The notes below the pieces were generated by a model. The model was given only the letters and a program-made list of their open reading frames with translations, did not search any database and was not told the DNA's origin. Of a DNA stretch of 64,000 nt, positions 10,332 to 61,100 are shown one piece after another. The translations under genes and the position numbers were made by a program. Source of the stretch: an uncultured Verrucomicrobiota bacterium. GTDB lineage: Bacteria > Verrucomicrobiota > Verrucomicrobiia > Palsa-1439. Numbering within the stretch: the first letter of the stretch is position 1; every line of letters begins with the position of its first letter. The stretch is taken from NCBI GenBank assembly GCA_964533295.1, contig CAZHLM010000002.1:30497-94496 (forward strand). Reading direction: 5' to 3'.

Positions 10332-10335
10332 CGAA

Positions 10336-41553: not shown

Positions 41554-42432
41554 ATGAACGATAACGACCTGTGGGTAACCGTCGGACCGGCGAACGGAAA
41601 ACACATCGTCTTGATCAGCGGCGACGAGGAATACCGGTCGGAGGAGGCGTTGCCGATGTTGGCGCAGGTCCTGAGCGCGCATCACGGGTTTCGGTGCACG
41701 GTGCTGTTTGCGATTGATCCGGCAACGGGACTCGTGGATCCGAATTGCCAGACCAACATTCCCGGCATGCATCTGCTCGACACGGCGGACATGGTGGTGT
41801 TGTTCGTGCGGTTTCGGGAGTTACCGGACGCGGACATGGCGCATTTCGTGAACTATCTTTCCGCCGGTAAACCGCTGCTCGGGTTGCGGACTGCGACGCA
41901 CGCGTTCCGGTATTCACGCAACCCGGCCAGTCCGTACGCCCATCTGCGCGATTTTGGCCGGCAGGTGCTCGGAGAGAATTGGGTCGCGCATCATGGGAAA
42001 CACGGCGTCGAGAGCACGCGCGGCATTCCGCGCGCCGGGCATCCGATTTGTCAGGGCATCGGCACCATTTGGGGGCCGACGGATGTGTACGCGGTGCATC
42101 CGCCCGGCGATGTCGAGGTGTTGGTGGACGGGCACGTGTTGACGGGCATGAACCCCAACGACCCGGTCAAACCCGACACGCCGACCATGCCGGTGGCGTG
42201 GATTCGGGAACGGAACGGGGCGCGGATTTTCTGTTCCACGATGGGCGCGGCGACCGACCTGCTGGATCCATCGTTGCGGCGCTTGCTGGTCAACGGCGTC
42301 TATTGGTGTCTGGGGATGGAGGGCCAGATTTCCTTCCAACGGAATGTGGAGCCGATCGGGCGCTATCAGCCGACTCCGTTCGGATTCCGAAAGACGCCGA
42401 CCGGCAAGCGACCGCGGGAGTTTTTCCGATGA
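41554..42432 (+). CDS. ThuA-like (class-I glutamine-amidotransferase-like fold) protein
   Basis: KHIVLISGDEEYRSEEALPMLAQVL...MVVLFVRFRELPDADMAHFVNYLSAGKPLLGLRTATHAF, the ThuA family pattern. Confidence 0.55.
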   Translation: MNDNDLWVTVGPANGKHIVLISGDEEYRSEEALPMLAQVLSAHHGFRCTVLFAIDPATGLVDPNCQTNIPGMHLLDTADMVVLFVRFRELPDADMAHFVNYLSAGKPLLGLRTATHAFRYSRNPASPYAHLRDFGRQVLGENWVAHHGKHGVESTRGIPRAGHPICQGIGTIWGPTDVYAVHPPGDVEVLVDGHVLTGMNPNDPVKPDTPTMPVAWIRERNGARIFCSTMGAATDLLDPSLRRLLVNGVYWCLGMEGQISFQRNVEPIGRYQPTPFGFRKTPTGKRPREFFR

Positions 42433-44474: not shown

Positions 44475-46555
44475 CGAGTTCGCTTACCACCGTTGACTGG
44501 CCGGCGTTTCTCGCGGCGCACGACATGATCTGGGAGACGGTGCCGGACAGTTGGAAGGAAGCGCCCCATTTTGGCAACGCGCTGCTCGGTTCGATGCTGT
44601 ATCGGCGCGACGGGAAACTCTGTCTGGAGATGTTTCGCGCCGACGTTCACGACCGCCGCGACGAAACGCACGGCTGGACTGCGTACAGCCGGCCGCGGTT
44701 TCGGATCGGATATTTCACGCTGGAAAATGCCGGCAAGCTGACCGGCTGTCGGTGGCGGAAGGATTTGTGGAACGCCGAGTTGACCGGCACGATCACCACC
44801 GAGCGCGGCGAGATTGGTCTCCGGCATTTTGTTCACGCCGAGGACCTGGTCGGCGTGACCGAGTGGACGGGCGCGACGGGGTTGCGGTGGCAGTGGCATC
44901 CGTTTGCGGCCCGCACGACGCGCGAGGGCTATCCCACGGACGCGGCCAGCTTGGATGCGTTTGCGAAGCGCTACGGGGAACATTACCGGCCGACGCTTCA
45001 GCCGCTGATCCCGAATCCGCCGGGGCGGTTGGAAAACGGGATGTGGATTCAGGATTTGCTGGCCGGTGGGCGGTATGTGACCGCATGGAAAGAGGAGGCC
45101 AACCGGCTGGTCGTCGGGACATCGGCCAATCTGCAATACGATCCGGAACGTCACCGGGCCTGGTGGCACGCGTATTACCGGCGCAGTTACGTCCGCATCC
45201 CGGACAAGAAATTGGAGGCGTTGTACTGGCAGACGGTGTACCGGCTGGGCTGCACGGCGCGGGCGGGGCGGAGTTTCGTGGATACGTCCGGCATTTGGTT
45301 TCAAGGCGGGTCGTGGCCGTATGCGACGCATGATTGGAACACGCAGGCGGCGCACTGGGGCGTGTATGCGGCCAACCGGCTGGAGCAGGGCGCGGAGATC
45401 GTGAATCGCTTGCAGGCGCATCGCGAGAGCCTCGTTCGCGCCGTCGAGCCGGCAGAATGGCAGACGGACTCGGCGTATCTGGCGTTGGCGACGGCGGGCG
45501 ACCTGGCCGGGACGCGCCGCAGTGACATGCGGTACTATCATCTGGTCGGGTGTCTGCCGTGGTTGCTGCACAACGCGTGGTGGCAATACCGGTATTCGAT
45601 GGATGAGGCGCTGTTGCGGGAGACCGTCTTTCCGTTGCTGCGGCGCGCGGTGAATCTGTATTTGCATCTGCTGGAGGAGGGCGACGATGGCCGGTATCAT
45701 CTCGCGCCGACCTACTCGCCCGAGACCGGCGTGTGGCGGGACGGCAACTTCGATCTCGCGCTGTTGAAGTGGGGCTGTCACATGTTGCTCCAGGCTTGCC
45801 GGCGGTTGCGGATGGATGATCCGCTGATCCCGCGCTGGCGGGAGGTGATCGCGAAGTTGGTGGACTTCCCGGCGGACGAGAAGGGCTACCGGCTCGGCCG
45901 GGATGAGCCGGCGCGGGAGCATCACCGGCATTTGTCGCATCTGCTGATGATGTATCCGTTGTATCTGGTGAACATCGAGCAGCCCGGTAATCGGGAGATT
46001 TTGCGCAAGTCCTGTACCGCGGGCTGGCAACCGGACAAGCCGTTGCAGGCGATGGTGCAGGCCCATGCCGGGCCGATCCAGGCTTCCGTCGGCAATGGCG
46101 ACGCGGTGTTGGCGGGACTGCGTCGGCTCCAGGAGGAATTGCACCCGAACGGTCTGTGGGGCGAGCCGCCGTGCATCGAGTCCACGTTGGCGGTGTTGAA
46201 CAACGTCCAGATGATGCTGCTCCAAAGCTGGAGCGACCCGGCCCGCGATGAACCGGTGTTGATACGAATTTTCCCCGCGCTACCGGCAGCGTGGGAGGAT
46301 GTGGAGTTTCAGGACTTGCGCGCCGAGGGCGCGTTCCTGGTTTCCGCCCGGCGTCGCGGCGGCGCGACGGAATGGGTGCGAGTCAAGAGTCTGGCCGGTG
46401 AGCCGTGTCGGGTGAAACTGGATTTGCGGAGTCCGCAGGTCGAAGCGCACCCGCGGAGCGCGGTTGCCGAGGTGCAGCCGGGAATGTTCGAATTAAATCT
46501 GCCGCGAGATGGGGAAGTCGTGTTTCGCCAACCGGGAGCGAGTGTGCCGGGATGA
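44471..46555 (+). CDS. GH95-like six-hairpin glycosidase (distant fucosidase/galactosidase homolog), cytoplasmic
   Basis: EHHRHLSHLLMMYPL parallels the DQHRHLSHLSAVHPG motif of the bona fide GH95 at 8148. 694 aa, no signal peptide. Confidence 0.5.
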   Translation: MTSSLTTVDWPAFLAAHDMIWETVPDSWKEAPHFGNALLGSMLYRRDGKLCLEMFRADVHDRRDETHGWTAYSRPRFRIGYFTLENAGKLTGCRWRKDLWNAELTGTITTERGEIGLRHFVHAEDLVGVTEWTGATGLRWQWHPFAARTTREGYPTDAASLDAFAKRYGEHYRPTLQPLIPNPPGRLENGMWIQDLLAGGRYVTAWKEEANRLVVGTSANLQYDPERHRAWWHAYYRRSYVRIPDKKLEALYWQTVYRLGCTARAGRSFVDTSGIWFQGGSWPYATHDWNTQAAHWGVYAANRLEQGAEIVNRLQAHRESLVRAVEPAEWQTDSAYLALATAGDLAGTRRSDMRYYHLVGCLPWLLHNAWWQYRYSMDEALLRETVFPLLRRAVNLYLHLLEEGDDGRYHLAPTYSPETGVWRDGNFDLALLKWGCHMLLQACRRLRMDDPLIPRWREVIAKLVDFPADEKGYRLGRDEPAREHHRHLSHLLMMYPLYLVNIEQPGNREILRKSCTAGWQPDKPLQAMVQAHAGPIQASVGNGDAVLAGLRRLQEELHPNGLWGEPPCIESTLAVLNNVQMMLLQSWSDPARDEPVLIRIFPALPAAWEDVEFQDLRAEGAFLVSARRRGGATEWVRVKSLAGEPCRVKLDLRSPQVEAHPRSAVAEVQPGMFELNLPRDGEVVFRQPGASVPG

Positions 46556-46592
46556 TGAAGCGAGCAAGTTTGGGACAGGCTGTTGTAGGGCG

Positions 46593-46682
46593 CGATGGCT
46601 GTCGTTTAGGAATCGCGCCGCGGACAGGGTTGATCATTCCTCGCGGCGCGCACCCCAAACGACGGGGATGCGCGCCCTGCAA
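46593..46682 (+). repeat. Copy 5 of TIR-bounded double-hairpin intergenic element
   Basis: TTGTAGGGCGcgatggctGTCGTttaggaatcgcgcc...ggcgcgcaccccaaACGACggggatgcgCGCCCTGCAA. Both halves here are near-identical inverted units. Confidence 0.6.
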
Positions 46683-46692
46683 ATTCTTTGTG

Positions 46693-47469
46693 ATGCTGGT
46701 GGGCTTTGGCGTGGCGGTTGGCAGTTTCGGGTTGTCCGCCGGGACGGTGCAGGAACACGAACTGTATTCACAAGAGGGAACCGACCCGACGTTCGAGTCG
46801 TTGCTGGCCGAGGGCGTGATTCCGGTGGGCAGCAACAGCACGCGGGGCGTGACCGGCTCTGTCATCCGCGTCAAACATCCCGTGCCCGGCGGCCCGATTC
46901 CGAAAGCGATCGCGATTCACACGTTGTGCAACGCCTCCATTCCCCGCCGCGACTTCGCGAAATGGACGCGGTGGTATCAGGAGGACGGGAACACGCAAAT
47001 CTTCCGGCTGTTCCAGGGCGAGACGAATGTGCGGAACGACCGGAAACTGGCCGCGCGGATTGAAGCGTTTGGTGGACAATGGGACGCCGGCCCGACCAAC
47101 GTCTGGCACGAGTGGGAGGGCACCTGCACGATCGTCAAACCGCACGGCGCGGCGATTTTTCAATCGAAGAACAATCTGAACGACTGGAGCGTCATGATCA
47201 ATCTGTCCGATACCGGCGACATCAAGTTGAACCATCGCCGGCATCAGGAGGATGTGGTGATCGCCACGAACATGACCGGCAAGAGTTTCGGCTTGAAGGT
47301 GCGGGACAATGGCCGCGACTACGAAGTGTATTTCAACGACCAAAAAGTCGGCGCCGGTCATTACGACCGGCCGGTAGGGAAAAACGCGTTCCGCTGGGGC
47401 CTGTATGTCGGCGCCAACGAGGTGCGGCACGACGCGATGATCTTTGTGACGGGGGCCAAATTTCGATGA
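46693..47469 (+). CDS. Secreted/anchored concanavalin-like jelly-roll protein, possibly PL7/alginate_lyase2-type polysaccharide lyase
   Basis: Hydrophobic leader MLVGFGVAVGSFGLSAG. KAIAIHTL, TQIFRLFQGETNVR and RWGLYVGANE loosely resemble the QIH / R-x-E-x-R / YFKAGxY blocks of PL7. Weak call. Confidence 0.3.
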   Translation: MLVGFGVAVGSFGLSAGTVQEHELYSQEGTDPTFESLLAEGVIPVGSNSTRGVTGSVIRVKHPVPGGPIPKAIAIHTLCNASIPRRDFAKWTRWYQEDGNTQIFRLFQGETNVRNDRKLAARIEAFGGQWDAGPTNVWHEWEGTCTIVKPHGAAIFQSKNNLNDWSVMINLSDTGDIKLNHRRHQEDVVIATNMTGKSFGLKVRDNGRDYEVYFNDQKVGAGHYDRPVGKNAFRWGLYVGANEVRHDAMIFVTGAKFR

Positions 47470-48758
47470 GCCACAGAACTCTGGTGAGCAGCGTCCGCGC
47501 AAGAAACCGGACCGATAAGGGTGGGCGGTCGGGCTTTTGCGGGAAAGGACGAGATGTTGACCAAGAAATTATCGCGGCGGCGACTCAAAGCGGGGAGCTG
47601 GCGCGTAACTTGTTCACGCTTTGTGATGACATCGGGCCGCGGTTTGCCGGCACGGATGGCTACCGGCGGGCGGCCGAGTTCATGCGCGACAAACTGCGGG
47701 AATACGGCTTCCCGGATGCGCGGCTGGAACCGTTCGAGTTCAACGCGTGGCGGCGCGGCGCACCGGGCCGATTGACGCAGCGGGGCCGGGAGTTTCCCTG
47801 CTACACGTTGCCGTACAGCGCGGCGGGCGAGGTGCGCGCGCCGTTGGTGGACGTGGGGGGCGGATCCGTCGAGGAGATCGGGCCGGCGGTGGCGGGCCGG
47901 TTGGTCCTGACCGACGCCGCCAGCGGCCATCGCCTGGAGGTGTATGCGCGGTGCGTCGAACACGGAGCGGCGGGATTTGTCCTGAGCAATCGCACGCCCG
48001 GCATGATCCTGCACACCGGCAGCGTGGGGAATGGAGAAAGGGGCGCGATACCGGCGGTGAGCGTGCCGTACGAGACCGGTCGGTTGCTCCAGCGACTGGC
48101 CGGCGCGGGCGAGTGTCAGTTGGTGACGGATGGCCGCTGCGAACGCGCCACGACGTGGAACGTGGTCGGCGAGTGGCCGGGCGGCGACGAACTGGTCATC
48201 ATGGGCGGTCATCTCGACTCGCACGAGATCGGCCCGGGCGCGTACGACAACGCGGCGGGCGTGGCGGTGGTGTGGGAGACGGCGCGGTTGCTCGCGCCGC
48301 ATCGGCGGCATTTCCAACGCGCGTTGCGGTTCATCGCGTTCGGGGCGGAGGAAGTCGGTCTGCTCGGATCGCATCACCACGCGCGGGCGCACGCGGACGA
48401 CTGGCGGCGCGCGCGGTGGATGTTGAACTGCGATATGCCGCCGCTGGCGGGGCCGCGCGGGTTGCTGTTTCACAACTGGCCGGAAGCGGACGCGTTCGTG
48501 GCGCAGCTTTCGGCGCAGATGGGCGAGGCGATTGCGTGCCGCCACCGGATGCAATGCCACTCCGATCATTATCCGTTCGTGTTGCAGGGAGTGAAAACCG
48601 GGGCGATCACGGGTGGCCGGGAGGAGAGGCCGGTGCAACGGTTCCTGCACATGGCCGGGGACACGCCGGAGAAGATTCCCGTGGAGGCGGTGCGGGACAC
48701 AGCGGTGTTTGCGGCACGGGTGTTGTGGCGTGTGGCGGCGGGAGACATGCTCGGATAG
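47466..48758 (+). CDS. M28-family Zn aminopeptidase
   Basis: IMGGHLDSHEIGPGAYDNAAGVAVVWETARLL and IAFGAEEVGLLGSHHH (metal-binding His/Asp/Glu blocks). Start at MSHRTL overlaps the upstream stop; uncertain. Confidence 0.65.
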   Translation: MSHRTLVSSVRARNRTDKGGRSGFCGKGRDVDQEIIAAATQSGELARNLFTLCDDIGPRFAGTDGYRRAAEFMRDKLREYGFPDARLEPFEFNAWRRGAPGRLTQRGREFPCYTLPYSAAGEVRAPLVDVGGGSVEEIGPAVAGRLVLTDAASGHRLEVYARCVEHGAAGFVLSNRTPGMILHTGSVGNGERGAIPAVSVPYETGRLLQRLAGAGECQLVTDGRCERATTWNVVGEWPGGDELVIMGGHLDSHEIGPGAYDNAAGVAVVWETARLLAPHRRHFQRALRFIAFGAEEVGLLGSHHHARAHADDWRRARWMLNCDMPPLAGPRGLLFHNWPEADAFVAQLSAQMGEAIACRHRMQCHSDHYPFVLQGVKTGAITGGREERPVQRFLHMAGDTPEKIPVEAVRDTAVFAARVLWRVAAGDMLG

Positions 48759-48771
48759 AATCGCCGCACCC

Positions 48772-50058
48772 ATGAAGCAGCCACCCAACATTCTCTACAT
48801 CCATTCGCACGACACGGGCCGGTACATTCAGCCTTATGGTCATGCGGTGCCGACGCCGAACCTGCAACGGCTCGCGGAACAGGGGGTGTTGTTCCGGCAC
48901 AACTTCTGTGTCAACCCGACGTGCAGTCCGAGCCGGGCGGCGTTGCTGACCGGCTGTTATCCGCACGAGAACGGCATGACGGGGTTGACCCACCGGGGCT
49001 GGCGGTTGAACGATTACCGGCAGCACATCATCCACACGTTGCGCCAAGTGGGCTACACGTCGGCGCTGGCCGGCGTCCAGCACATTGCGCTCAAGCGGGA
49101 TGACCAAATGCCCTGGCAGGTCATCGGGTATGACCAACATGCCGGTCTGGATGGCTGCGAAGGGGCGGTGTCCTTTCTGGAGAATGCGCCGCCGCAACCG
49201 TTCTTCCTCACGGCTGGTTTCGGCGAAACGCATCGCGAGTTCCCGCCGCTGGAGGAATGTCCGGATGATCCGCGGTATTGTCTGCCGCCCGCGCCGTTGC
49301 CGGATGCGCCGCAGACCCGGCAGGACATGGCCCGCTACAAGGCGTGCGCCCGCATCCTCGATGCGAAGATGGGCAAGGTCTTTGATGCGCTGGAGCGGAC
49401 CGGTCTGGCCAGAAACACGCTCGTCATCTGCACAACCGACCACGGCATCGCGTTCCCGCGCATGAAATGCAACCTCGAAGATTCCGGTATTGGCACAATG
49501 CTGATCTTGCGGTTACCGGGCGTGTTCGATGGCGGTCGCGTGGTGGATGCGATGACCAGTCATCTCGACATTTTTCCAACGGTCTGCGAGCTGGCGGGCG
49601 CGCCTGCACCGGCGTGGTTGCGGGGACGGTCGCTGGTGGGGATTGACGGTGAGATTCATGATGCGCTCTTTTTCGAGGTCAACTATCACGCCGCCTACGA
49701 GCCGATGCGCGCGGTGCGGACGAAACGCTGGAAATACATCCGCCGATTCACGGAGCGCGGGCGGCCGGTGCTGGCCAACTGCGATGACAGCCCGAGCAAA
49801 TCGGTCTGGCTGGAACACGGCTGGCCTGATCGGCCGATGCCGACGGAGGCGCTGTACGATTTGGTGTTTGATCCGAACGAGACGAACAACCTTGCCGGCG
49901 AGTCGGTGACGCAGCCGGTTTTGGAAGAGATGCGGGGAAAGTTGGAAGCTTGGATGAAGGAAACGAACGATCCGTTGCGGACCGGCCCGGTCCCGATGCC
50001 GCCGGGCGCGAAGGTCAATAGCGCCGACGATCTTTCGCCCAAGAGAAATCCGACGTGA
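48772..50058 (+). CDS. Cys-type sulfatase, leaderless (cytoplasmic)
   Basis: MKQPPNILYIHSHDTG...CSPSRAALLTGCYPHENG. No signal peptide. Confidence 0.85.
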   Translation: MKQPPNILYIHSHDTGRYIQPYGHAVPTPNLQRLAEQGVLFRHNFCVNPTCSPSRAALLTGCYPHENGMTGLTHRGWRLNDYRQHIIHTLRQVGYTSALAGVQHIALKRDDQMPWQVIGYDQHAGLDGCEGAVSFLENAPPQPFFLTAGFGETHREFPPLEECPDDPRYCLPPAPLPDAPQTRQDMARYKACARILDAKMGKVFDALERTGLARNTLVICTTDHGIAFPRMKCNLEDSGIGTMLILRLPGVFDGGRVVDAMTSHLDIFPTVCELAGAPAPAWLRGRSLVGIDGEIHDALFFEVNYHAAYEPMRAVRTKRWKYIRRFTERGRPVLANCDDSPSKSVWLEHGWPDRPMPTEALYDLVFDPNETNNLAGESVTQPVLEEMRGKLEAWMKETNDPLRTGPVPMPPGAKVNSADDLSPKRNPT

Positions 50059-51527
50059 AACCGAACCTGATCTTTATCTTGGCCGACGACATGGGTTACG
50101 GCGATGTGTCGTGCCTGAATGAGCGGGCGGCATTCAAGACTGTCCACCTCGACCGGCTCGCGGCGGGCGGGATGCGCTGCACCGACGCGCATTCCAGTTC
50201 CGCCGTTTGCACGCCGTCGCGGTACAGCGTGTTGACGGGCCGGTACAGTTGGCGGTCGGTGTTGAAATCAGGGGTGACCGGCGGGTACTCGCGACCGATT
50301 TTGGAGGATGGGCGGCTGACGGTGGCTTCGATGCTGAAGGAGCAGGGCTACCGGACGGCGTGCGTCGGCAAATGGCATCTCGGACTCGAATGGCGATTGA
50401 AGGATGGCGGGATTGCTTCCACGTATCAGGATGAAGCGCAGGTTGATTTTGCCGCGCCGATCACCAACGGGCCGCTCCAGCACGGGTTTGATTATTTCCA
50501 CGGCATCAGCGCCTCGCTCGACATGCCACCCTACGTTTACATCGAGAACGACCGGGCAAGCTCCGTGCCCACAAGACGCTGGGAACAGGTCACCGGCAAG
50601 CGGTTCATGCGGGCCGGTGTGATGGCGGATGACTTCGATCCGCAGACGGTCCTGCCGACGCTGACCGCGAAGGTGGAAACGTTGATTGCCGGGTACGCCG
50701 CTGGCGGGCAGCCGTTCTTTCTCTACTTTCCGTTACCGGCTCCGCACACGCCGATTTTGCCGACGGCGGAGTTTCGCGGGAAATCGGGCACAAACGAATA
50801 CGGGGATTTTTGTTTGCAGGTGGATGACACGGTCGGGCGTGTGATGGCGGCGTTGGAAAAGCACGGGCTGGCGGAGAACACGATCGTGATTTTCACGTCG
50901 GACAACGGTTGTTCGCCGATGGCCGACTTCCCGGAGCTGGCGAGGTTCCACCACCATCCCAGCCACGTGTTTCGCGGCATGAAATCCGACATCTTCGAGG
51001 GCGGGCACCGGATTCCGTTTCTCATCCGGTGGCCGGCGGTGATTGCGCCCGGTAGTCGCTGCGAGCAGACGTTGTGTCTGTCGGACCTGATGGCGACGAT
51101 GGCGGAGATCACGGGCTACCGGCTGCCCGATTCGGCGGCGGAGGACAGCGTGAGCCTGGCGCCGATATTCCGCGACCCGCACTCCGCATTCCGCAGTCCC
51201 GTGGTTCATCACTCGATCAACGGTTCGTTTTCGATTCGGCAGGGACGATGGAAGTTGGAGATGTGCCCGGACTCGGGCGGCTGGAGCGATCCGAAGCCGG
51301 GGTCGACGGAAGCCGCCGCGTTGCCGCCGATTCAGCTTTACGACCTGGCGCAGGACATCGGGGAACGGCACAACGTGCAGGACCGTTACCCGGCAATCGT
51401 GGCGGAGTTGAAACGCCTGCTCACCCGGTATGTCAAAGACGGGCGCAGCACGCCGGGCGTTCCCCAACCCAACACCGGCAGCAAACACTGGCCGCAACTG
51501 CACTGGCTCACCGAACATGAACTGTAA
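50055..51527 (+). CDS. Cys-type sulfatase, leaderless (cytoplasmic)
   Basis: GTG start overlapping TGA (GTGA). MKPNLIFILADDMGYGDVSCLN...CTPSRYSVLTGRYSW. Confidence 0.85.
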   Translation: MKPNLIFILADDMGYGDVSCLNERAAFKTVHLDRLAAGGMRCTDAHSSSAVCTPSRYSVLTGRYSWRSVLKSGVTGGYSRPILEDGRLTVASMLKEQGYRTACVGKWHLGLEWRLKDGGIASTYQDEAQVDFAAPITNGPLQHGFDYFHGISASLDMPPYVYIENDRASSVPTRRWEQVTGKRFMRAGVMADDFDPQTVLPTLTAKVETLIAGYAAGGQPFFLYFPLPAPHTPILPTAEFRGKSGTNEYGDFCLQVDDTVGRVMAALEKHGLAENTIVIFTSDNGCSPMADFPELARFHHHPSHVFRGMKSDIFEGGHRIPFLIRWPAVIAPGSRCEQTLCLSDLMATMAEITGYRLPDSAAEDSVSLAPIFRDPHSAFRSPVVHHSINGSFSIRQGRWKLEMCPDSGGWSDPKPGSTEAAALPPIQLYDLAQDIGERHNVQDRYPAIVAELKRLLTRYVKDGRSTPGVPQPNTGSKHWPQLHWLTEHEL

Positions 51528-52920
51528 GCCCGACGACAGACCCAACTTCATTTTGATCAACTGTGACGACCTCGGCTACGGCGACCTGGGTTGTTACGGG
51601 TCGGCGGTGAACCGCACGCCCGCGCTCGACCGAATGGCGGCGGAGGGAATGCGCTTCACGGATTACCACGTGATGTCGCCGGTCTGCTCGGCGTCGCGGG
51701 CGGCGTTGCTGACCGGCTGTTACCCGCAACGGGTCGGCATGAAAGGCGTGCTGTTTCCCGGCGACGCGATCGGGCTGAATCCGAAAGAGATTACGATCGC
51801 GAAGCTGCTGAAAGGTCAGGGCTACCGGACCAAGATCGTCGGCAAATGGCATTGCGGCGACCAGCCGGAGTTTTTGCCGACGAATCACGGCTTCGATGAG
51901 TATTACGGCCTGCCGTACAGCAACGACATGGGGATTCAGGGGCCGCCCGAAAATCGTCCGCCGTGGCGCGTGCCCTTGCCGCTGATGCGAAACGCCGAGG
52001 TCATCCAACAGCAGCCCGACCAACGCGGGTTGACGGAGCGGTATTGCGAGGAATGCGTCCGGTTCATCCGCGACAACCGGCGCGGACCGTTCTTCCTCTA
52101 CCTCGCGCACATGTACGTCCACGTGCCGTTGTTCGTGCCGCACCGGTTTCTGCGACAGTCCCGCAACGGCGGCTACGGCGGGGCGGTCGAGTGCATTGAT
52201 TGGGCGGCCGAGGTGTTGTTTCACGAGTTGAAGCAGTTGGGCTTGGACGAGAACACGCTGGTCATTTTCACCAGCGACAACGGTTCCCGCGCCAATGGCG
52301 AAGGCGGCAGCAACGCGCCGTTGCGCGGGACGAAGGCCGAGACGTGGGAAGGCGGTCAGCGCGTGCCGTTCATTGTCCGCTGGCCGGGGAAAGTTCCCGC
52401 CGGCAAGGTCTGCCACGAACTCGTCACCGCGATGGATCTGCTGCCGACGTTGGCGCGGTTGGCCGGAACGACCGAACCGCAGGACCGGGTGATGGATGGC
52501 AGGGATATCGCGCCGTTGCTGTTCGACAAGCCGGGAGCCAGGTCGCCGCATGAGAGTTTCTTTTACTACCGGCACGAAAGCCTGCATGCCGTCCGCAAAG
52601 GAAAATGGAAACTCCATTTTCTCCAGGCCGTCGGCTTCGCCAAGCCGCAAGCCGTCGCGCCTGAGTTGTACGATCTCGACCGGGATGTCGGCGAACAACA
52701 CAACGTCGCCGCCGCGCACCCCGAGGTAGTCGCCGAACTCACCGCTCTCGCCGAGCAAGCCCGGCAAGACTTGGGCGACGCTTTTACCGGCGTGGTGGGC
52801 CGGGGGCGACGCGAGCCGGGGCGGGTCGAGAATCCCAAACCGCTCACGACCTACGACGAGAACCATCCGTACATTGTCGCGTGTTACGACATGCCGGATA
52901 CAAATGTGATGGGCGGATGA
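51517..52920 (+). CDS. Cys-type sulfatase, leaderless (cytoplasmic)
   Basis: MNCKPDDRPNFILINCDDLGYGDLGCYGS...CSASRAALLTGCYPQRVGM. 11-nt overlap with upstream gene. Confidence 0.85.
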   Translation: MNCKPDDRPNFILINCDDLGYGDLGCYGSAVNRTPALDRMAAEGMRFTDYHVMSPVCSASRAALLTGCYPQRVGMKGVLFPGDAIGLNPKEITIAKLLKGQGYRTKIVGKWHCGDQPEFLPTNHGFDEYYGLPYSNDMGIQGPPENRPPWRVPLPLMRNAEVIQQQPDQRGLTERYCEECVRFIRDNRRGPFFLYLAHMYVHVPLFVPHRFLRQSRNGGYGGAVECIDWAAEVLFHELKQLGLDENTLVIFTSDNGSRANGEGGSNAPLRGTKAETWEGGQRVPFIVRWPGKVPAGKVCHELVTAMDLLPTLARLAGTTEPQDRVMDGRDIAPLLFDKPGARSPHESFFYYRHESLHAVRKGKWKLHFLQAVGFAKPQAVAPELYDLDRDVGEQHNVAAAHPEVVAELTALAEQARQDLGDAFTGVVGRGRREPGRVENPKPLTTYDENHPYIVACYDMPDTNVMGG

Positions 52921-54317
52921 ACATTGTCTTAATCACGGCCGACGACCTGAACTGGAACTCCGTCGGCGCGTATGGTTGCCGGACACCCGACGGCACGCCG
53001 AACATGGACGCGCTGGCGGCGGCGGGGATGCGGTTCAACCACGCGCACATCACCATCGCGGTCTGCCAGCCGAGCCGCGGCGCGATCATGACGGGCCGGT
53101 ACCCGCATAAGAGCGGGCAGGAGGGTTTTCATCACATCAACGGCAGCCCGGTGCCGCTGTTGACGGAGGAACTGCGCAAGGGCGGGTACCGGACCGGGAT
53201 CCTTGGGAAAGTCGGCCACTCGTCGCCGAAACAGGAATACCGGTGGGATTTTTCTCAGGACATGCCGGAGTTGGCGTGGGGACGCGACCCGGAGTTGTAT
53301 TACCGGTTCACGAGGGAATTTCTCGCGCAGACGCAGGGCCAGCCGTTCTTTCTGATGGCCAACTCGCATGACCCGCACCGGCCGTTCCACGGCAACGACG
53401 CGGAGTTGCAGGGCAAAAACGGCATCACCTATCCGCCGCCGTCGCGCGTTTTCCAACCGGAAGAAGTCGAGGTGCCGGGGTTCTTGCCGGACCTACCGGA
53501 GGTGCGCCGGGAAATCGCGGAGTACGCGAGCAGTTGCCGGCGGTGCGATGACACGGTTGGGCGCGTGATGGCCGCGCTCCGGGATGCCGGCGTGTACGAG
53601 AACACGCTGATCATGTTTTTGTCCGACAACGGCATGGCGTTTCCGTTTGCGAAGACGAATTGTTATCTGCACAGCACCAAGACGCCGTGGATCGCGTGCT
53701 GGCCGGGACGGATCAAACCCGGCAGCGTGGACAACGACCATTTCATCAACGGGATTGATTACCTGCCGACCGTGCTGGAATCCGCCGGGCTGCCCATACC
53801 GGCCGGTGTGGATGGACGGTCGTTCCTGCCGGTATTGCTGGGCGGGAAAGACGCGACGCGGACGCGAGTGTTCACGCAGTTTCATGAGACGCACGGCAGA
53901 CGCCGGTATCCGATGCGGTGCGTGCAGGACAAACGGTTCGGCTACATTTTCAACCCGTGGTCGGACGGCCAGCGCGTGTTCCAGAACGAGTCGCAGACCG
54001 GTCGCACGTTCCAAGCAATGCAGGCCGATCCCGGTAGCGCCGCGCGGGTGAGGCTGTTTCTCTACCGGGTCTGGGAAGAACTCTACGATTTCGAGAACGA
54101 CCCCGATGCGCTGGTGAATCTGGTGGACGATCCGCGTTACCGGGAGGAATTGGAACGGCTGCGCGGGGAACTGGAAGAATGGATGGTGGAACACGGCGAT
54201 GCGGCGTTGCCGGTCTTTCGCCAGCAGCAATCAGCCGCCGAATTCATGGCGGAGCAGAAAATCCATAGTCAGAAATTATTCGAAACAGGAAACCTTCGGG
54301 TCGGCGCGACTTGCTGA
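52917..54317 (+). CDS. Cys-type sulfatase, leaderless (cytoplasmic)
   Basis: MNIVLITADDLNWNS...CQPSRGAIMTGRYPHKSG. ATGA overlap. Confidence 0.8.
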   Translation: MNIVLITADDLNWNSVGAYGCRTPDGTPNMDALAAAGMRFNHAHITIAVCQPSRGAIMTGRYPHKSGQEGFHHINGSPVPLLTEELRKGGYRTGILGKVGHSSPKQEYRWDFSQDMPELAWGRDPELYYRFTREFLAQTQGQPFFLMANSHDPHRPFHGNDAELQGKNGITYPPPSRVFQPEEVEVPGFLPDLPEVRREIAEYASSCRRCDDTVGRVMAALRDAGVYENTLIMFLSDNGMAFPFAKTNCYLHSTKTPWIACWPGRIKPGSVDNDHFINGIDYLPTVLESAGLPIPAGVDGRSFLPVLLGGKDATRTRVFTQFHETHGRRRYPMRCVQDKRFGYIFNPWSDGQRVFQNESQTGRTFQAMQADPGSAARVRLFLYRVWEELYDFENDPDALVNLVDDPRYREELERLRGELEEWMVEHGDAALPVFRQQQSAAEFMAEQKIHSQKLFETGNLRVGATC

Positions 54318-54377
54318 TCCTGCCGGCGCCGGTGCGCTTTTTTGGGGCGGGGCATTTCAACGTAAGGACGGACCACA

Positions 54378-55604
54378 ATGAACCCTGAACCCTCCGGCGA
54401 ATACTACGATTACACGAAGACGATGAAGCCCGAGCGGCCGTGGTTGTTGCCGTATCACCAGAGCCTGGTGTATCTGATGATGCTGGCGACCCGTGGCGGC
54501 GACGGCAAAATGGACAAGCTCTACCTGACGTTCGAGCAGGCGCTTGATGCGATTCGCAAGATCCACAACCTGACCTGCGGCATCCCGCAGATCGTTTACC
54601 TGATTGGCTGGCACCACGAGGGCCACGACTCGAAGTACCCGGACTGGAGCGAGGTCAACCGGCATCTCAAGCGGCCGCAAGATGCGACGGCGCGGGACAG
54701 CCTGCGGTGGCTCATCCGGGAAGCGCGCCGGTACCGCGCCACCGTCAGTCTGCATCTGAATATGTTTGACGCCTATCCGGACAGTCCGCTCTGGGACGAG
54801 TACGCGGCCAAAGACATCATCGCGAAGGACAAAAACGGCCAGGTCATCCCCGGCAAGGCGTGGGGCGGGATGATGTCGTACCAGATCAGTTACACGCAGG
54901 AATGGAAGCACGGGCTGGTGCAGAAGCGGATTGACGGACTGCTGGCGATGATCCCGGAACTGGTGGAGGGGAAAACCATCCACATTGACGCCTTTCTGGG
55001 CGCGCGCCCGTTGGCCCCGCAGGAGCCGATCAGCCCGTATCTTGGTTACACAAAGGAGCAGGAAGTGGCGACGCAACGGAAGATGTACCGGTACTGGCGG
55101 GACCGGGGGATTGATGTCACCTCCGAATGGGTGAACGGCTTTCGCGGGGACCGCTTCGTCGGATTGCAACCGTGGGCGTGGCACGGCGGGGAAGCGATCC
55201 AGGATTTACCGGCCGAGTTGTACTGCACCAACGTGATGAAGACGAACGTCCGTGAAATCCGGGGCGACCCAGCCGGGCCGGATTACGTGACGTATCCGTC
55301 CGAGTTCTTTCTGCGAGTCCTGCCGTGGGTCTCGCAGAAACCGCCCGATGGCACAGATGTCTGCCTGCCGGTGCCGTGGTGCCAGGAGCCGACGCTTATC
55401 GCTTACAGCCAGGGAGGGTTTGCGAACAAAACGTGGCCCTTGCCGGCGGACTGGAAGGATGTGAAAGAAGTCAACGTCTCCAGGCTGACATGGGAGGGGG
55501 CACAGTTTGTGGCCAGCCAGCCGGTGACGGAGGCGTCCATCCAGTTGAGTCTCGGAAAAAATGAGGCCGTAAACATAACGAGGAAGGAAACAGGAACGTC
55601 CTAA
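54378..55604 (+). CDS. Conserved hypothetical, probable TIM-barrel glycosidase-like enzyme (cytoplasmic)
   Basis: 408 aa, no leader. His/Asp-rich block GIPQIVYLIGWHHEGHDSKYPDW followed by several W/Y-rich strands. Embedded in the sulfatase run; no confident family call from motifs. Confidence 0.3.
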   Translation: MNPEPSGEYYDYTKTMKPERPWLLPYHQSLVYLMMLATRGGDGKMDKLYLTFEQALDAIRKIHNLTCGIPQIVYLIGWHHEGHDSKYPDWSEVNRHLKRPQDATARDSLRWLIREARRYRATVSLHLNMFDAYPDSPLWDEYAAKDIIAKDKNGQVIPGKAWGGMMSYQISYTQEWKHGLVQKRIDGLLAMIPELVEGKTIHIDAFLGARPLAPQEPISPYLGYTKEQEVATQRKMYRYWRDRGIDVTSEWVNGFRGDRFVGLQPWAWHGGEAIQDLPAELYCTNVMKTNVREIRGDPAGPDYVTYPSEFFLRVLPWVSQKPPDGTDVCLPVPWCQEPTLIAYSQGGFANKTWPLPADWKDVKEVNVSRLTWEGAQFVASQPVTEASIQLSLGKNEAVNITRKETGTS

Positions 55605-55782
55605 CAACCGGTCAAGTACCCAGCGTCATGCGATTGCCACCTCGGATGGATGTGTGGTCGCAAGGTTATGCGGGTTGGTAGCACGATGCCGCCCCGGCAA
55701 ATGTTTCAGTTGGCGGAGTGGCGCGGTGCGTGAAGGAATATCTGGCCGGGAAGATGGCCGCGATTGCGGAATTGGAGTGCGA

Positions 55783-56670
55783 ATGTCCACCCCAGTGAAA
55801 ACCGGCGGCTTGGGCTACGAACTATTGCTGTTGTTGGTCTCGGTGATTTGGGGTTCGACGTTTGTGGCCCAGCAGATTGGGATGGAACGCGGGTTGGGGC
55901 CGATGACTTTCAACGCGTTGCGGTTTGCGTTGGGGACGCTGGTGTTGGTGCCGGTGATTTGGCTGCGTCAGACCAGTGATACCGGCCTGCCGCTCAAGGG
56001 CAGCCTCCTGGCCGGGGTGTGTTTGTTTGCGGCGGCGGGCTTTCAACAGGTCGGGCTGCAATACACGTCGAGCGCGAATGCGGGATTCATTACCGGGTTG
56101 TATGTCGTGATGGTGCCGGTGATCGGGTTGTTTCTGGGGCGGCAAGCCCGGCGCAGCTTGTGGGTCGGCGCGGCGGTGTGCGTGGCGGGGTTGTATCTGT
56201 TGAGCGTGACGGCGGAGTTGACGATGGGGAAAGGAGATTTGTTGGTGCTGGTGTGCGCGGTGTTGTGGGCGTTCCAGATTTTGGTCATTGACCACGTGGC
56301 GCAACGGGGCGACCCGGTGCGGATTGCGGCGGTGCAGTTTGCGGTGTGCACCGGGCTCAGCGCCGTGGCGGCGGGGTGGTTTGAGCCATGCACGATGGCG
56401 GCGGTGCGGGCGGGCGCGGGTGCGGTGGCGTATGCCGGGATTTTGTCGGTGGGCGTGGCGTTCACGTTGCAGGTGGTTTGTCAGAAACGTTGTCCGGCGG
56501 GACCGGCGGCGGTGATGATGAGCATGGAAGCGGTGTTTGCCGCGCTGACCGGTTACGTGGTGCTCGGGCAAACGTTGACGCCCCGGGCGCTGCTCGGTTG
56601 TGGCTTGATGCTTGCCGGGATGCTGATGGTGCAGTTGGTGCCGCTGTTGAAAGGAAAGAAAACGGAGTGA
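55783..56670 (+). CDS. EamA/DMT-family (10-TM drug/metabolite) transporter
   Basis: Two repeated 5-TM halves, each carrying EamA-like GSTFVAQQIG / MEAVFAALTGYVVLGQTLT signature segments. Confidence 0.7.
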   Translation: MSTPVKTGGLGYELLLLLVSVIWGSTFVAQQIGMERGLGPMTFNALRFALGTLVLVPVIWLRQTSDTGLPLKGSLLAGVCLFAAAGFQQVGLQYTSSANAGFITGLYVVMVPVIGLFLGRQARRSLWVGAAVCVAGLYLLSVTAELTMGKGDLLVLVCAVLWAFQILVIDHVAQRGDPVRIAAVQFAVCTGLSAVAAGWFEPCTMAAVRAGAGAVAYAGILSVGVAFTLQVVCQKRCPAGPAAVMMSMEAVFAALTGYVVLGQTLTPRALLGCGLMLAGMLMVQLVPLLKGKKTE

Positions 56671-58013
56671 ATCAAAAACCAAATCTGATTTTCGTGTTGG
56701 CCGACCAATGGCGGGCGCAGGCGTTTGGGTATGCCGGTGACCCGAACGTCCAGACGCCGAACATGGACCGGTTCGCGGCGGCGAGCGTGAATTTTGCCAA
56801 CGCCGTGTCGGGCACGCCGGTCTGCACGCCGTACCGGGGAACGTTGATGACGGGAGTGTATCCCCACCGGCACAAGTTGATGGTCAACGACCAGTGTTTG
56901 TATGACCGCTATCCCGGTCCGTTTCTCGGCGAGTGCCTGCGCGACGGCGGTTACCGGACCGCGTACATCGGCAAGTGGCACATTGACGGCCACGGGCGCA
57001 GCGCGTTCGTTCCGCCAGAGCGCCGATTGGGTTTTGCGTGGTGGAAAGGTTACGAATGCTGTCACGATTACCGCAATTCGCCGTACTACTTCGGCGACGA
57101 CCCGCAGCCGCGCCGCTGGCCGGGCTACGACGCCGATGCGCAGACCGACGAGGCATGCCGGTATCTCCGCGAGGAAGTGGACGAGAATCCGTTCGCGCTG
57201 GTGTTGTCGTGGGGGCCGCCGCACAACCCGTTCGGAACGGCACCGGAGCCATTCGAGAAGATGTACGACCCGGCCGCGATCCAGTTGCCGGCGAACGTGC
57301 CGGCTGCGGTGGCCGACCGGGCGCGCAAGGAACTCGCCGGGTACTACGCGCATTGTTCGGCGTTGGATGCGTGTTTTGGCCGGTTGCTCGCCACGCTGGC
57401 CGCGACGGGCCTGGACAAGAACACGATTGTGATCTTCGCGTCGGACCACGGCGACATGCTCGGCAGTCAGGGCATGTTTCGGAAACAGAGGCCGTGGGCG
57501 GAGTCGGTGCGCGTGCCGTTTCTGGTCCGGCATCCGCAGGTGAAACACCCGCGCGTGGATGACACGCCGATTGACGCGCCGGACTTGATGCCGACGTTTC
57601 TCCGTTTGTGCGGACTGCCGGTACCGACCGCTGTGCAAGGCCGGGATTTCAGCGCGACGATTGTGGAGGGCAAACCGTCCGGCATCGAGAGCGCGTTGCT
57701 GGCGTTGTACACGCCGTTCCACGAATGGCGGCGGGAGGATGGCGGGCGGGAGTATCGTGGCTTACACACGGCGCAGTTTACGTATGTGCGGTCGTTGGAC
57801 GGGCCGTGGTTGCTGTACGACAACGTGGCGGACCCGGCGCAGTTGCACAACCTCGTGCCCGATCCGCAGCATGCCGCGCTGGTCCGGGAATTGGACGCGG
57901 CGTTGACGAAGCGGCTGGGGGAAATCGGCGACGAGTTTTTGCCGGGGCCGGAGATCGTCAAACGGGAAGGGTATGCCCTCAACGCGAAGGGGGACATCGC
58001 GTACACGTTGTAA
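56667..58013 (+). CDS. Sulfatase-family protein with variant active-site CTPYR, leaderless; GTG start
   Basis: VNQKPNLIFVLADQWRAQ...CTPYRGTLMTGVYPHRH. GTGA overlap with the EamA stop. Confidence 0.7.
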   Translation: MNQKPNLIFVLADQWRAQAFGYAGDPNVQTPNMDRFAAASVNFANAVSGTPVCTPYRGTLMTGVYPHRHKLMVNDQCLYDRYPGPFLGECLRDGGYRTAYIGKWHIDGHGRSAFVPPERRLGFAWWKGYECCHDYRNSPYYFGDDPQPRRWPGYDADAQTDEACRYLREEVDENPFALVLSWGPPHNPFGTAPEPFEKMYDPAAIQLPANVPAAVADRARKELAGYYAHCSALDACFGRLLATLAATGLDKNTIVIFASDHGDMLGSQGMFRKQRPWAESVRVPFLVRHPQVKHPRVDDTPIDAPDLMPTFLRLCGLPVPTAVQGRDFSATIVEGKPSGIESALLALYTPFHEWRREDGGREYRGLHTAQFTYVRSLDGPWLLYDNVADPAQLHNLVPDPQHAALVRELDAALTKRLGEIGDEFLPGPEIVKREGYALNAKGDIAYTL

Positions 58014-58116: not shown

Positions 58117-61100
58117 ATGAAGCGGACCGGGTTTCTTTTACTGGCGGGTGTGTTTCTCAGTCATGCCATTTTCGGGGCGGAGCCGGTCGTCAAATCCGTC
58201 GTCTGGTCGCCGCATGGCGCGGAGCGCGGGTGCCGGGTCAACTTGGGGCCGACCGGGGCACAGGCGTGGATGCGCGGCTGCCAGTTTGAAATCATGACGG
58301 TGGAGTCCGGGTCGCCGTCAGACGGAATTCTTCAGCCGGGCGACCGGGTGCTGGGGGTGGGGGACACGCGGTTTTCGGAGGAGGGCGATTCGCGGATGTT
58401 GTTGGGCCATGCGATCGGCGCCGCGGAAGCGGCGGACGGCGCGCTCGCGTTGACGATTCGCCGCGAGGGACGCGAGCAGCGTGTGACCGTGCGCGTGCCG
58501 GTGATCGGCGCTTTTGCGGCCAGTTGGCCGTTCAACTGCGCCAAGTCGCAGCGAATTTTGGACGCGGCTTGCGCGTATCTGTTGGACGCCCAGTTGCCCT
58601 CGGGGAAAGTGGTGACCGATGGCGGACACGGCACGTACACCGCCGGGCTGTTGTTGTTGGCGTCGGGTGACGCGCGCTACTTCGACGGTGCGCGGCGGGC
58701 CGCGTACGAGGTCGCCGATACGGACTTGGAGACGATTGACTACAGCAACTGGGCGTTGGGCTACGGCGGGTTGTTGTTGGCGGAGTATTACCTGGCGACG
58801 GGCGACACGAACGTGCTGGCGCGGTTGCAGAGTGTCGTGGATCATCTGGCGCGCGGCCAAATGCGGTGCGGGTCGTGGGGGCACAACAATCCGTCGGGCG
58901 GCTACGGCGCGCTCAACCAATCCGGCATGGTGTGCGCGCTCACGATGGCGTTGGCGCAGGAGTGCGGGCTGCGCGTGGATCGCGTGGCGTTTGACCGGGC
59001 GGTGTCGTTTTACAGCCGGTACGCCGAGTTGGGCGCGGTGCCGTATGGCGATCATCCGCCGGGGGTGAGTCTGCCGGACGACAATGGCAAAAACTCCCTG
59101 GCCGCGGTGCTGTGCTGGTTGTTGCCGCAGCGGCGCGCGGCGGCGGCCGTGTTTGCGCAGTCGGTTGCGATAAGTTATTGGCTGCGGGAAGAAGGTCACA
59201 CGGGCGGGTATTTCTCGATGATGTGGGGAGCACCGGCGTGCGCGTTGGCGGGGCCGGAGGCGTTGCGGACGTTTTTGGATTATCAGACGTGGTACTACAA
59301 TCTTTGCCGGACCTGGCGCGGGGCGTTGGTGATGTTGCCGTATCACGAGGCGCTGACCCGATTTGATGATTCCGGTTACATCTGGTTCGGCGGCGACTTC
59401 ACGACCGGTGGGATGGCCCTGATGTTTGCATTGCCGCAACGGCAACTGCGCGTGCTCGGCGCGCCGCGCAGCGTGTTCGGGGCGGACCTGACCGGACCGC
59501 TGTTGGACGCCCGGCAAGCGTATCAAGCGCGACGGTGGAATGATTTTGATTCGGCCATCGCCGCCGCCGGCAAGGTTGTGTCGAGCGCGGAGGAAAAATA
59601 CTGGTTGTCCCAACTCACGGCCGTGGCGGCGCGGGTGCGCGCCTCGACACAACGCACGCGGCAGCAAATCGAGGCCAATCTGGCGGAAGGCGACGCCTAC
59701 CGGGCCGCGGAACAATACCGGGCGCTGAAGCGGTTTCTCGGCGATGCGGATGAGGTCATCGTGGCGTTGGAGAAACGGTTCGCCGACGGGACGGTGCAGT
59801 GGCACAGCCGGACGGGCAAAAAGTATTATCAGGCGTGGGAGGACTTGCGCGGGGTCGGTGTGATGTCGTGGTTGCCGTACGGCGAGCAGGCCAAAGAGCG
59901 GCTGGCCGCCGTGCCGGGTCTGCAACTGAAGCTTTGGGAAACATTGGCGCCGACGAATTCGGCCGCGGGCGGACAACTTGAGTTTGCGTTGGTGACGACG
60001 AACTATTCGGCGTTGCGGCTGCAGTTGCGCAGTCCGCGGGATGCGCACAGCCGGGTGTTTCTGAATGGGACGCAAGTCGCCGAGGCGACGCGCGGTCAGC
60101 GGTCTGGATATGCGAAGATCGAACTCGACGCGACCGCACGGCGGTTGTTGCGGCCGGGCACAAACGTGCTGGCCATCACCAGCACGTCCACGGGCACCGG
60201 CAACAACGCGCTCGATGTGGGATTGGAGGGAGTGCCCGTTGAATTGTTGCCGGCCGCCACGCCGGCATGGACGGGGCCGGTGTTGACCGAGTTGCCGGCC
60301 AGTGTGCGGGTGGTGTTCGATCGGGCGCGGATGACGTTTGCCGCGACGCGATTGGAATTTCCGGAGAATCCGGCAATCCCAGAGCGGATGCGGGTGCGGG
60401 ACAGTGCCGATCGGTTTAAGAAAACATTGGAGACCGGTTTTGATGCGCTGGCTGAGAATGAATGTATGGAGTGGCTGCGGTCGCCGTTGTCGTATGCGCG
60501 GTTTCTGGCGAGCCGGTCGTTGGCGCGACGCGGCGCAGCCGGTCGGCAGGCGGCGGTGGCCGGGCTGACGGATTCGGATTGGCGCGTGCGCAGCGCGAGC
60601 TGTGATGTGTTGGCGGCTTTGCCCAAGGACAGCTTGCCGGTTGACGATGCGGTGCTCTCGCGGTTGGCGGAACTGGTGGCGGATGAGAACGCGTGGGTTC
60701 GGTTCCGCGCGGCGACCGCGTTGGGCGCAGTGGGACGGCCCGATGCGAAGGCGGCGACGGCATTGGTGAAGGCGGCGCAGGATGAGACGCAGTGGGTGCG
60801 AATCGCGGCGTTGGGCGCGCTGAACCAGGTGGCGAGCGAGCCGCGGGTGATCGTGGCGGCGCTGACGGCGGCGCTGCGCGTGCCGAGCACGTCGTTTGGT
60901 GTTCTGGGCCGGGCGGTGGGGCTGATCGAGAAACTGGACGGAAACGACGCGGAGCTGGTGTCGGCCCTGGCGTTTGCGGTGGAACATCCCGGCGAGGGGA
61001 TGGGAGCGGACAGTGTGAACAAAGCCATGGAGCAGCTCGTGCGATTGGATCCCGACGGGCAGCGGGCGGTGCCGGTATTGGCGCGGGTGGCGGCCGGTGG

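Follow-up and report, generated by a model that had tools for sequence, protein, structure and literature searches.

A 64,000-nucleotide stretch of an uncultured Verrucomicrobiota bacterium of the Palsa-1439 lineage (contig CAZHLM010000002.1, positions 30,497 to 94,496; hereafter the window) carries an array of genes, at 48772-58013, for five Cys-type sulfatases without any export leader, which we call S1 to S5. Judging from the sequence, we propose, with a probability of roughly 0.7, that S1-S5 constitute a cytoplasmic finishing module of a fucose-rich sulfated-glycan locus in this bacterium of the Planctomycetes-Verrucomicrobia-Chlamydiae (PVC) superphylum. The array consists of seven plus-strand genes: the five PF00884 sulfatase genes, together with a gene for a GH101-like protein and one for an EamA protein of the drug/metabolite transporter (DMT) superfamily, both of which sit between S4 and S5. 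The features of the array are as follows.

48772-50058, plus strand: sulfatase S1 (PF00884), 428 amino acids (a.a.), ATG start, motif CSPSR
50055-51527, plus strand: sulfatase S2 (PF00884), 490 a.a., GTG start, motif CTPSR
51517-52920, plus strand: sulfatase S3 (PF00884, E = 5e-62), 467 a.a., motif CSASR
52917-54317, plus strand: sulfatase S4 (PF00884), 466 a.a., motif CQPSR
54321-54345, plus strand: weak terminator-like hairpin with a T-run, directly 3' of the S4 stop codon (consensus scan)
54378-55604, plus strand: putative minimal GH101-like glycosidase, 408 a.a., leaderless (PF12905, E = 2e-17, 63.8 bits versus a cut-off of 25)
55783-56670, plus strand: EamA/DMT membrane transporter (PF00892), 295 a.a., its stop codon overlapping the S5 start
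56667-58013, plus strand: sulfatase S5 (PF00884), 448 a.a., GTG start, motif CTPYR

To establish whether a leader might be hidden by the choice of start codon, each frame was traced back to the preceding stop codon, and every in-frame start was inspected for Kyte-Doolittle 10-mer maxima and for an RR motif. The N-terminus of each of S1-S5 coincides with the first beta-strand of the catalytic domain. For S2, no in-frame start exists further upstream, its frame being open only back to 50022, and the one to four in-frame upstream starts of each of S1, S3, S4 and S5 add Arg/Gly-rich or polar residues, so that no hydrophobic or twin-arginine leader is gained. The 10-mer hydropathy maxima of these extensions are 0.6 or lower, and the overall peak (up to ~1.2) is the first strand of the catalytic domain itself. 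In S1 and S5, the extensions fall within the preceding genes, in another frame. The full enumeration rules out upstream alternative starts as the source of a leader, the possibility that the original prediction, made from the DNA letters and a list of open reading frames, had named among those that would overturn it.

Two other sulfatases in the window, at 10336 and 13444, served as positive controls. They score 3.3 and 2.45 by the same measure, and an N-terminal extension of 35-45 residues is confined to these two in the alignment of the sulfatases, in agreement with the clear leaders previously ascribed to them. Since they bear ordinary leaders, the organism uses classical signals when it exports a sulfatase. 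S1-S5 also lack a transmembrane segment, as their 19-residue hydropathy maxima are at most 1.32 and none reaches 1.6; no 19-residue window of the GH101-like protein, or of the M28 peptidase encoded immediately upstream of S1, lies in the membrane-segment range either. The C-termini of S1-S5 are unremarkable, with no sorting signal visible. In the protein collection, products with identical starts and lengths are on record for all five from NCBI and/or Logan assemblies. With no leader from any start, no membrane segment and matching gene calls, the earlier statement that S1-S5 have no signal peptide was confirmed. If ~25% of sulfatases are leaderless, as in related genomes (PMC6388578), and the five are taken as independent, the chance that all five would be leaderless is ~0.001.

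The genes are tightly coupled. On reading the DNA, S1 and S2 overlap by 4 nt with GTGA in common, S2 and S3 overlap by 11 nt, S3 and S4 have ATGA in common, and the EamA gene and S5 have GTGA in common. The overlaps given in the original prediction were thus exact, but the extent that it stated for the chain was too short. Tight coupling spans 41554-54317, from a ThuA gene to S4: the genes for ThuA (41554), a heparinase II/III-like protein (42429), a GH95-like glycosidase (44471), a protein without an assigned function (46552) and the M28 peptidase (47466) follow one another with successive 4-nt overlaps, and the M28 stop at 48758 is separated from the S1 ATG at 48772 by a gap of 13 nt. The hairpin behind S4 is a possible end of this ThuA-to-S4 transcription unit. 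The overlapping stop and start codons would keep the enzymes of the array co-expressed.

The sulfatase identity of the five proteins is clear. All of them match PF00884 with 122-210 bits against a cut-off of 25 (E = 1e-35 to 5e-62), all reading frames are intact, and the signature (C/S)-x-(P/A)-x-R followed by x-x-x-[LM]-T-G is present in each, with S3 showing the Ala form in its CSASR motif. In the alignment, the Cys, Arg, Thr and Gly of the signature are invariant, as are H154, D223 and K232 (S1 numbering), and D-[NH]-G follows strand 8. The CTPYR motif of S5 had been singled out as a variant. We rejected the view that it is aberrant, because C-x-P-Y-R occurs more often than any other form in the 150 representatives (at 50% identity) nearest to S5, with CTPYR alone accounting for 15. 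A separate observation concerns the strand-1 metal site: residues 9-13 of S1 (within 48772-48830) read Ser-His-Asp where most sulfatases have Asp-Asp. The pair at this site is HD in S1, ED in the solved S1_8A sulfatase, and DQ in S5, the last being general among S5 relatives.

The nearest solved relatives of S1-S5 suggest five different specificities. S1 is closest to an S1_8A sulfatase (PDB 9bb9, E = 3e-42). S2 appears S1_15-like, as judged by its best PDB matches: the Gal/GalNAc-6-O-sulfatases 7oze, 6s20, 9bas and 9bau (E = 4e-77 to 1e-60). S3 is nearest to arylsulfatase A, steryl-sulfatase and GALNS (PDB 1e2s, E = 1e-81), and S4 to N-sulfoglucosamine sulfohydrolase (SGSH; PDB 4mhx, E = 5e-54), the name under which JGI also labels members of the S4 cluster. 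S5 is nearest to enzymes of the endo-4-O-sulfatase or "YidJ" type (PDB 8di0, 6s21 and 2qzu, E ~1e-58). Five different subfamilies in a single operon would fit a pathway in which small oligosaccharides lose sulfates from different positions step by step.

The subfamily assignments also bear on whether S1-S5, while cytoplasmic, might instead serve sulfur scavenging, hydrolyzing small non-carbohydrate sulfate esters with no relation to glycan catabolism. Cytoplasmic Cys-type arylsulfatases with such a role are known, AtsA for example, and NCBIfam offered no equivalog-level name for the five proteins, its matches being to generic arylsulfatase and choline-sulfatase models below threshold. However, the five subfamilies share one operon with glycosidases, esterases and a lyase-like protein, and their nearest solved relatives are carbohydrate sulfatases (S1_15, S1_8, SGSH and endo-4-O-sulfatase). 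In addition, their orthologues elsewhere lie beside GH78, GH20, GH106, SASA and ATP-binding cassette (ABC) sugar transporter genes, and no sulfonate or sulfate-starvation genes were found nearby. We consider a scavenging role unlikely.

The leaderless state recurs in homologues. We collected S2 orthologues from 80 species-level genomes and reconstructed the N-terminus of each. At 55% identity or above, ~20 of 26 have no leader, their first residue lying only a few positions from the K-P-N-[IL]-[IV] strand; their sources are Kiritimatiellae (72% identity), Victivallales, Verrucomicrobia, Anaerolineae, Gemmatimonadota, Sphaerochaeta and several Firmicutes. Below 55% identity, leaders of the Sec, lipoprotein or twin-arginine type predominate, in orthologues from Bacteroidota, Planctomycetota, Acidobacteriota and other groups. 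In Eisenbergiella tayi (locus L023), the gene for the leaderless S2 orthologue comes immediately behind those for two ABC permeases and a solute-binding protein, and the regulator is an AraC-type two-component one; as this organism is a monoderm, the absence of a leader indicates that the protein is cytoplasmic. In a library-wide search, 59 of the 117 classifiable representatives of the S5 family were leaderless, and many of the remainder had obvious twin-arginine translocation (Tat) signals. Leaderless orthologues of S2, S3, S4 and S5 were also present in other PVC contigs, which had been found via the EamA protein: an S3 orthologue that likewise has CSASR (L088), S4 orthologues encoded directly upstream of EamA (L086 and L088), and an S5 orthologue that likewise has CTPYR (L089).

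The leader state also tends to be common to neighboring genes. In the 80 related loci, 36 of the 39 pairs of neighboring sulfatase genes on one strand were concordant, as called by a crude classifier that missed two weak Bacteroidota leaders in one locus (L033). Leader state therefore behaves as an operon-level property, and the run of five is not a matter of chance. As far as the compared N-termini tell, the leaderlessness of these sulfatases is inherited. Sulfatases that are otherwise orthologous fall into separate clades according to whether they have a leader, a point to bear in mind wherever sulfatase counts from metagenomes are taken to represent "extracellular degradative capacity".

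These data also speak to the possibility that S1-S5 are exported without a classical leader, by Tat piggy-backing, through vesicles or lysis, or by a PVC-specific route, and act in the periplasm. The operon does encode leader-bearing proteins as well, and distant members of the same subfamilies have Sec or Tat leaders, so that the folds can work outside the cytoplasm. Nevertheless, the exported sulfatases of the same window have ordinary leaders, leaderless orthologues are found in monoderm Firmicutes, one of them right behind an ABC importer, the C-termini offer no visible sorting signal, and leader states agree within operons. Such an export appears quite improbable to us.

Taken together, the cytoplasmic finishing module that we propose would work as follows. 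Leader-bearing GH95, GH29, SASA/GDSL esterases, two sulfatases, the heparinase II/III-like protein and DUF6288 proteins would, outside the cytoplasmic membrane, cut a fucose-rich, acetylated and sulfated glycan. The small products, sulfated sugars or oligosaccharides, would then cross the inner membrane, with the co-operonic EamA/DMT protein as a candidate carrier. Inside, the five soluble sulfatases (S1_8-like, S1_15-like, ARSA/GALNS-like, SGSH-like and 4-O-sulfatase-like) might each take off a different sulfate, and the leaderless GH101-like, GH95-like and GH29 enzymes and the M28 peptidase would act alongside them. The active-site Cys would be converted to formylglycine by a maturase encoded outside the window. 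The original prediction had likewise envisaged a cytoplasmic battery acting on imported substrates, and this part is supported by the absence of leaders and membrane segments, by the leaderless orthologues, including those of monoderms, and by the ABC-linked locus; the unusualness that it claimed was overstated, given the genome-wide counts in PMC6388578 and the intracellular sugar sulfatase reported for Bifidobacterium breve (PMC7326374).

Several points weigh against this pathway. The leader calls were made from hydropathy, twin-arginine motifs and comparison with homologues, and this is the chief technical reservation. The subfamilies are assigned from the nearest solved structures only, at ~30-40% similarity, and the substrates are guesses. 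DMT proteins are often exporters, and the case for EamA as an importer is correspondingly weak; in five other contigs, moreover, sulfatase genes lie kilobases away from the EamA orthologue or are absent. The S1-S4 array as a whole is absent from the 80 species representatives, among which only the pairing of S2 with an M28 gene recurs, in the nearest Kiritimatiellae metagenome-assembled genome (MAG; L003). Finally, no maturase gene (FGE, PF03781, or radical-SAM anSME) was found among the scanned open reading frames of the window, so that the maturase gene must lie elsewhere in the genome.

Radical-SAM anSME maturases are cytoplasmic and act before export, and cytoplasmic maturation would thus be the normal case, although a literature search for a statement on where anSME acts returned nothing citable. 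Related Kiritimatiellales isolates have one anSME each and several FGE-domain genes (PMC6388578), and the cytoplasmic formylglycine maturation that had been put forward as a requirement is not a special one.

A further alternative keeps S1-S5 in the cytoplasm but has them edit or recycle precursors of the cell's own sulfated exopolymer instead of imported food. Related Pontiella strains make sulfated glycosaminoglycan-like exopolymers (PMC7356697), and a WbsX-like protein is encoded at 11919 in the window. However, the enzymes encoded alongside them in the operon are hydrolases of a catabolic kind, the window yielded no sulfotransferase or polymer-export genes, and the gut Firmicutes orthologues lie in sugar-uptake loci; we give this alternative very little weight. 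That the leaderlessness is an artefact of wrong starts, N-terminally truncated pseudogenes or assembly error, as the GTG starts of S2 and S5 and the many alternative open reading frames at high G+C might suggest, is highly improbable, because all frames are intact, the S2 upstream frame is closed, the remaining extensions lack hydrophobicity, independent assemblies yielded the same sequence, and orthologues in many phyla start at the same position.

The protein encoded at 54378 had been described as a leaderless unknown enzyme. It is leaderless and matches the Pfam GH101 family, and from its sequence and predicted structure it is best described as a minimal leaderless GH101-like glycosidase. 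It has >1000 homologues, and the best 120 are mostly ~410 a.a. long; the sources are MAGs of Verrucomicrobia, Lentisphaeria, Planctomycetota and Spirochaetales. An AlphaFold2 model built with 50 homologues has a mean predicted local distance difference test score of 88, and a Foldseek search with this model returned GH101 endo-alpha-N-acetylgalactosaminidases as the best matches (TM 0.69, 16-17% identity), followed by the GH129 enzyme NagBb. D204 and E250 are invariant in the 50 homologues and may correspond to the GH101 catalytic pair, an Asp nucleophile and a Glu acid/base. GH101 enzymes are multi-domain, secreted proteins of >1000 a.a., in contrast to this 408-a.a. protein with neither a leader nor accessory domains, and the NCBIfam SpGH101 model scores 39.5 on it against a cut-off of 2900. 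The protein hints at hexosamine-containing substrates. Contig L084 carries at 10001-15688, in order and all coupled, genes for a GH101-like protein, a sulfatase, a second GH101-like protein and a GH20, with a GH101-like protein of the contig falling into the same 90%-identity cluster as ours. The ~410-a.a. leaderless GH101-like family as a whole is widespread and has a confidently predicted fold, with no characterised member.

The EamA protein matches PF00892 in two stretches (132 bits) and has 10 hydrophobic segments. It is the only transporter of the array and the best candidate in the window for the carrier. Its orthologues in PVC MAGs (60-83% identity) always lie within glycan-degradation loci, and sulfatase genes directly flank the orthologue in L086, L087 and L088, two of these three contigs being near-identical. 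The idea of EamA as a strict sulfatase partner was rejected, since direct flanking occurs in these three contigs and not in the five others. In L086, the sulfatase adjoining EamA (8977-10565) is split into open reading frames of 249 and 259 a.a., possibly through a frameshift, pseudogene formation or a sequencing error, and in L090 a DUF6288 gene lies near the EamA orthologue. Another candidate glycan carrier in the window is a multi-pass DUF6785/DUF6784 membrane protein of 657 a.a. (33195-35168).

Upstream of S1, the coupled chain comprises the following genes.

41554-42432, plus strand: ThuA-like protein (PF06283), leaderless, N-terminus MNDNDLWV without a hydrophobic stretch, its stop codon overlapping the next start by 4 nt
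42429-44474, plus strand: heparinase II/III-like protein (DUF4962 and Hepar_II_III_C) with a leader, MKMSLRQWLVVIVAAAVVQA, of Kyte-Doolittle 3.5; ATGA overlap on either side
44471-46555, plus strand: GH95-like glycosidase (PF22124/PF21307), leaderless, N-terminus MTSSLTTVDWPAFL; 4-nt overlap on either side
46552-47469, plus strand: 305-a.a. protein with a hydrophobic N-terminal segment (signal or anchor), no Pfam match
47466-48758, plus strand: M28-family metallopeptidase, 430 a.a., leaderless (PF04389, E = 1e-33), no hydrophobic segment

The heparinase II/III-like protein is probably the exported depolymerising step of the operon. The 46552 protein has a long N-terminal region before its hydrophobic segment and is joined by ATGA overlaps to the GH95-like gene on one side and the M28 gene on the other; its C-terminal half, judged by eye, resembles a concanavalin-type lyase or glucanase-like fold. 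The 430-a.a. M28 product is on record from NCBI and Logan assemblies, and the recurring M28 gene in the Kiritimatiellae MAG (48% identity; L003, 9760-11073) follows an S2 orthologue of 72% identity. Sulfated glycopeptides might account for the presence of a peptidase among sulfatase genes.

Pfam scans revealed a glycan utilisation locus throughout the 64-kb window, with GH95, two GH29 fucosidases, GH10, GH5 and GH63-like proteins. The window also encodes five SASA/GDSL esterases, seven sulfatases, the heparinase II/III-like protein, four DUF6288-HEAT proteins and a PEP-CTERM protein, and its G+C content is 0.60-0.66. What the window encodes, and its closest homologues, indicate a PVC bacterium, probably of the Kiritimatiellia. 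Leader-bearing and leaderless genes are interleaved: the ADH, ThuA, GH95-like, M28, S1-S4, GH101-like and S5 proteins are leaderless, as are the GH29 at 38449 and the SASA esterase at 36653, and two leader-bearing genes (42429 and 46552) stand inside the coupled chain. The cytoplasmic surroundings described by the original prediction thus hold for the GH95-like, ThuA and ADH proteins, which are leaderless, but the neighborhood is mixed, and the GH63 and GH5 genes lie >40 kb away.

Other parts of the locus are of interest in their own right. Four large leader-bearing paralogues with DUF6288 (E down to 1e-126) and HEAT repeats, one of them also with a PDZ domain, occupy 19338-23582, 27286-29934, 29950-32979 and 58117-61296, together ~12 kb of the glycan locus. 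On the minus strand, a coupled operon at 33195-40143 encodes the leaderless GH29, the leaderless SASA esterase, a leader-bearing GH10 and the DUF6785 + DUF6784 membrane protein. Two further proteins have no Pfam match: a leaderless one at 5433-6446, whose N-terminus by eye is like that of the neighboring GH5 protein, and one with a leader at 6480-8066. The locus opens (976-2223) with a gene whose product, a PEP-CTERM-anchored protein that has an HpiC1-like domain, fits a PVC-type sorting to the cell surface.

Import with subsequent desulfation in the cytoplasm is already known as a principle (PMC7326374), and so is the fact that many PVC sulfatases have no leader (PMC6388578); the value of the locus is therefore that of a good test case rather than a discovery. 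Its contribution is a clear example, at the level of an operon, from a diderm, in which the partners recur, and it provides five enzymes, one transporter and one glycosidase as a defined, testable set. The sulfatases of marine and gut PVC bacteria, which number from tens to hundreds, are usually assumed to be extracytoplasmic; here, in an operon whose parts are conserved, desulfation appears to be finished intracellularly. A bolder generalization, which we offer tentatively as a rather doubtful one, is that leaderless sulfatases of the S2-S5 types, the conserved EamA/DMT protein and the minimal GH101-like protein would form a recurrent cytoplasmic pathway for sulfated (amino-)sugar oligosaccharides in diderm PVC bacteria. 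If so, no member of the superfamily before this DMT protein would have been known to carry sulfated sugars, and the protein could even swap sulfated sugars for released sulfate, like the plastid DMT sugar-phosphate/phosphate translocators. A substantial share of the hundreds of PVC sulfatases would then act inside the cell, not in the periplasm.

How the array compares with known systems can be considered from several sides. Pseudomonas aeruginosa AtsA is a cytoplasmic Cys-type formylglycine sulfatase of a diderm, serving sulfur scavenging under sulfate limitation. It demonstrates that such an enzyme can be matured and active in the cytoplasm, but it is a single enzyme without a glycan operon and only a distant relative (PDB 1hdh, E = 1e-12 to 6e-45). 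AtsA is also the reference for sulfatase numbering (PMC6388578).

The periplasmic or surface sulfatases of Bacteroidota polysaccharide utilization loci (for example the S1_15, S1_8 and S1_27 enzymes, whose structures gave the closest PDB matches) share the fold, the motif and, by nearest solved structure, the subfamilies with S1-S5, and are similarly clustered with glycosidases for stepwise desulfation. They have Sec or lipoprotein leaders, however, as do the Bacteroidota orthologues of S2, whereas S1-S5 have none. The E. tayi orthologue is 56% identical to S2 and has the same leaderless N-terminus, but its locus is that of a monoderm, with one sulfatase and an ABC instead of a DMT transporter, and it is uncharacterised.

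In Bifidobacterium breve, each sulfatase cluster reportedly consists of one sulfatase, a transporter and its own anSME. Strain UCC2003 is reported to use an intracellular sulfatase for growth on N-acetylglucosamine-6-sulfate (PMC7326374, citing Egan et al. 2016). The likeness lies in the uptake of a sulfated sugar followed by the action of an intracellular formylglycine sulfatase. B. breve is a monoderm, in contrast to the diderm considered here, where five sulfatases of different subfamilies and a DMT transporter are encoded, with no maturase gene in the window.

The general expectation is that polysaccharide sulfatases are periplasmic or extracellular (PMC9324843), and a literature search for the phrase "cytoplasmic sulfatase" gave no match. 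Signal peptides were found in 96% of the sulfatases of Pontiella agarivorans (PMC10880615) and in 34 of the 39 of Candidatus Hinthialibacter (PMC9324843). The closest precedent is provided by the Kiritimatiellales strains F1 and F21 (Pontiella; van Vliet et al. 2019), in which 354/521 and 339/480 sulfatases have signal peptides and 141/521 and 106/480 (22-27%) are predicted to be soluble and cytoplasmic (PMC6388578). These are the same kind of protein, almost all of the Cys-type, with a single anSME gene per strain, and they come from the lineage to which the closest S2 orthologue also points. The F1 and F21 figures are a genome-wide count without an operon or a pathway, whereas in the present locus five such sulfatases stand in one coupled array, together with a DMT transporter and leaderless glycosidases.

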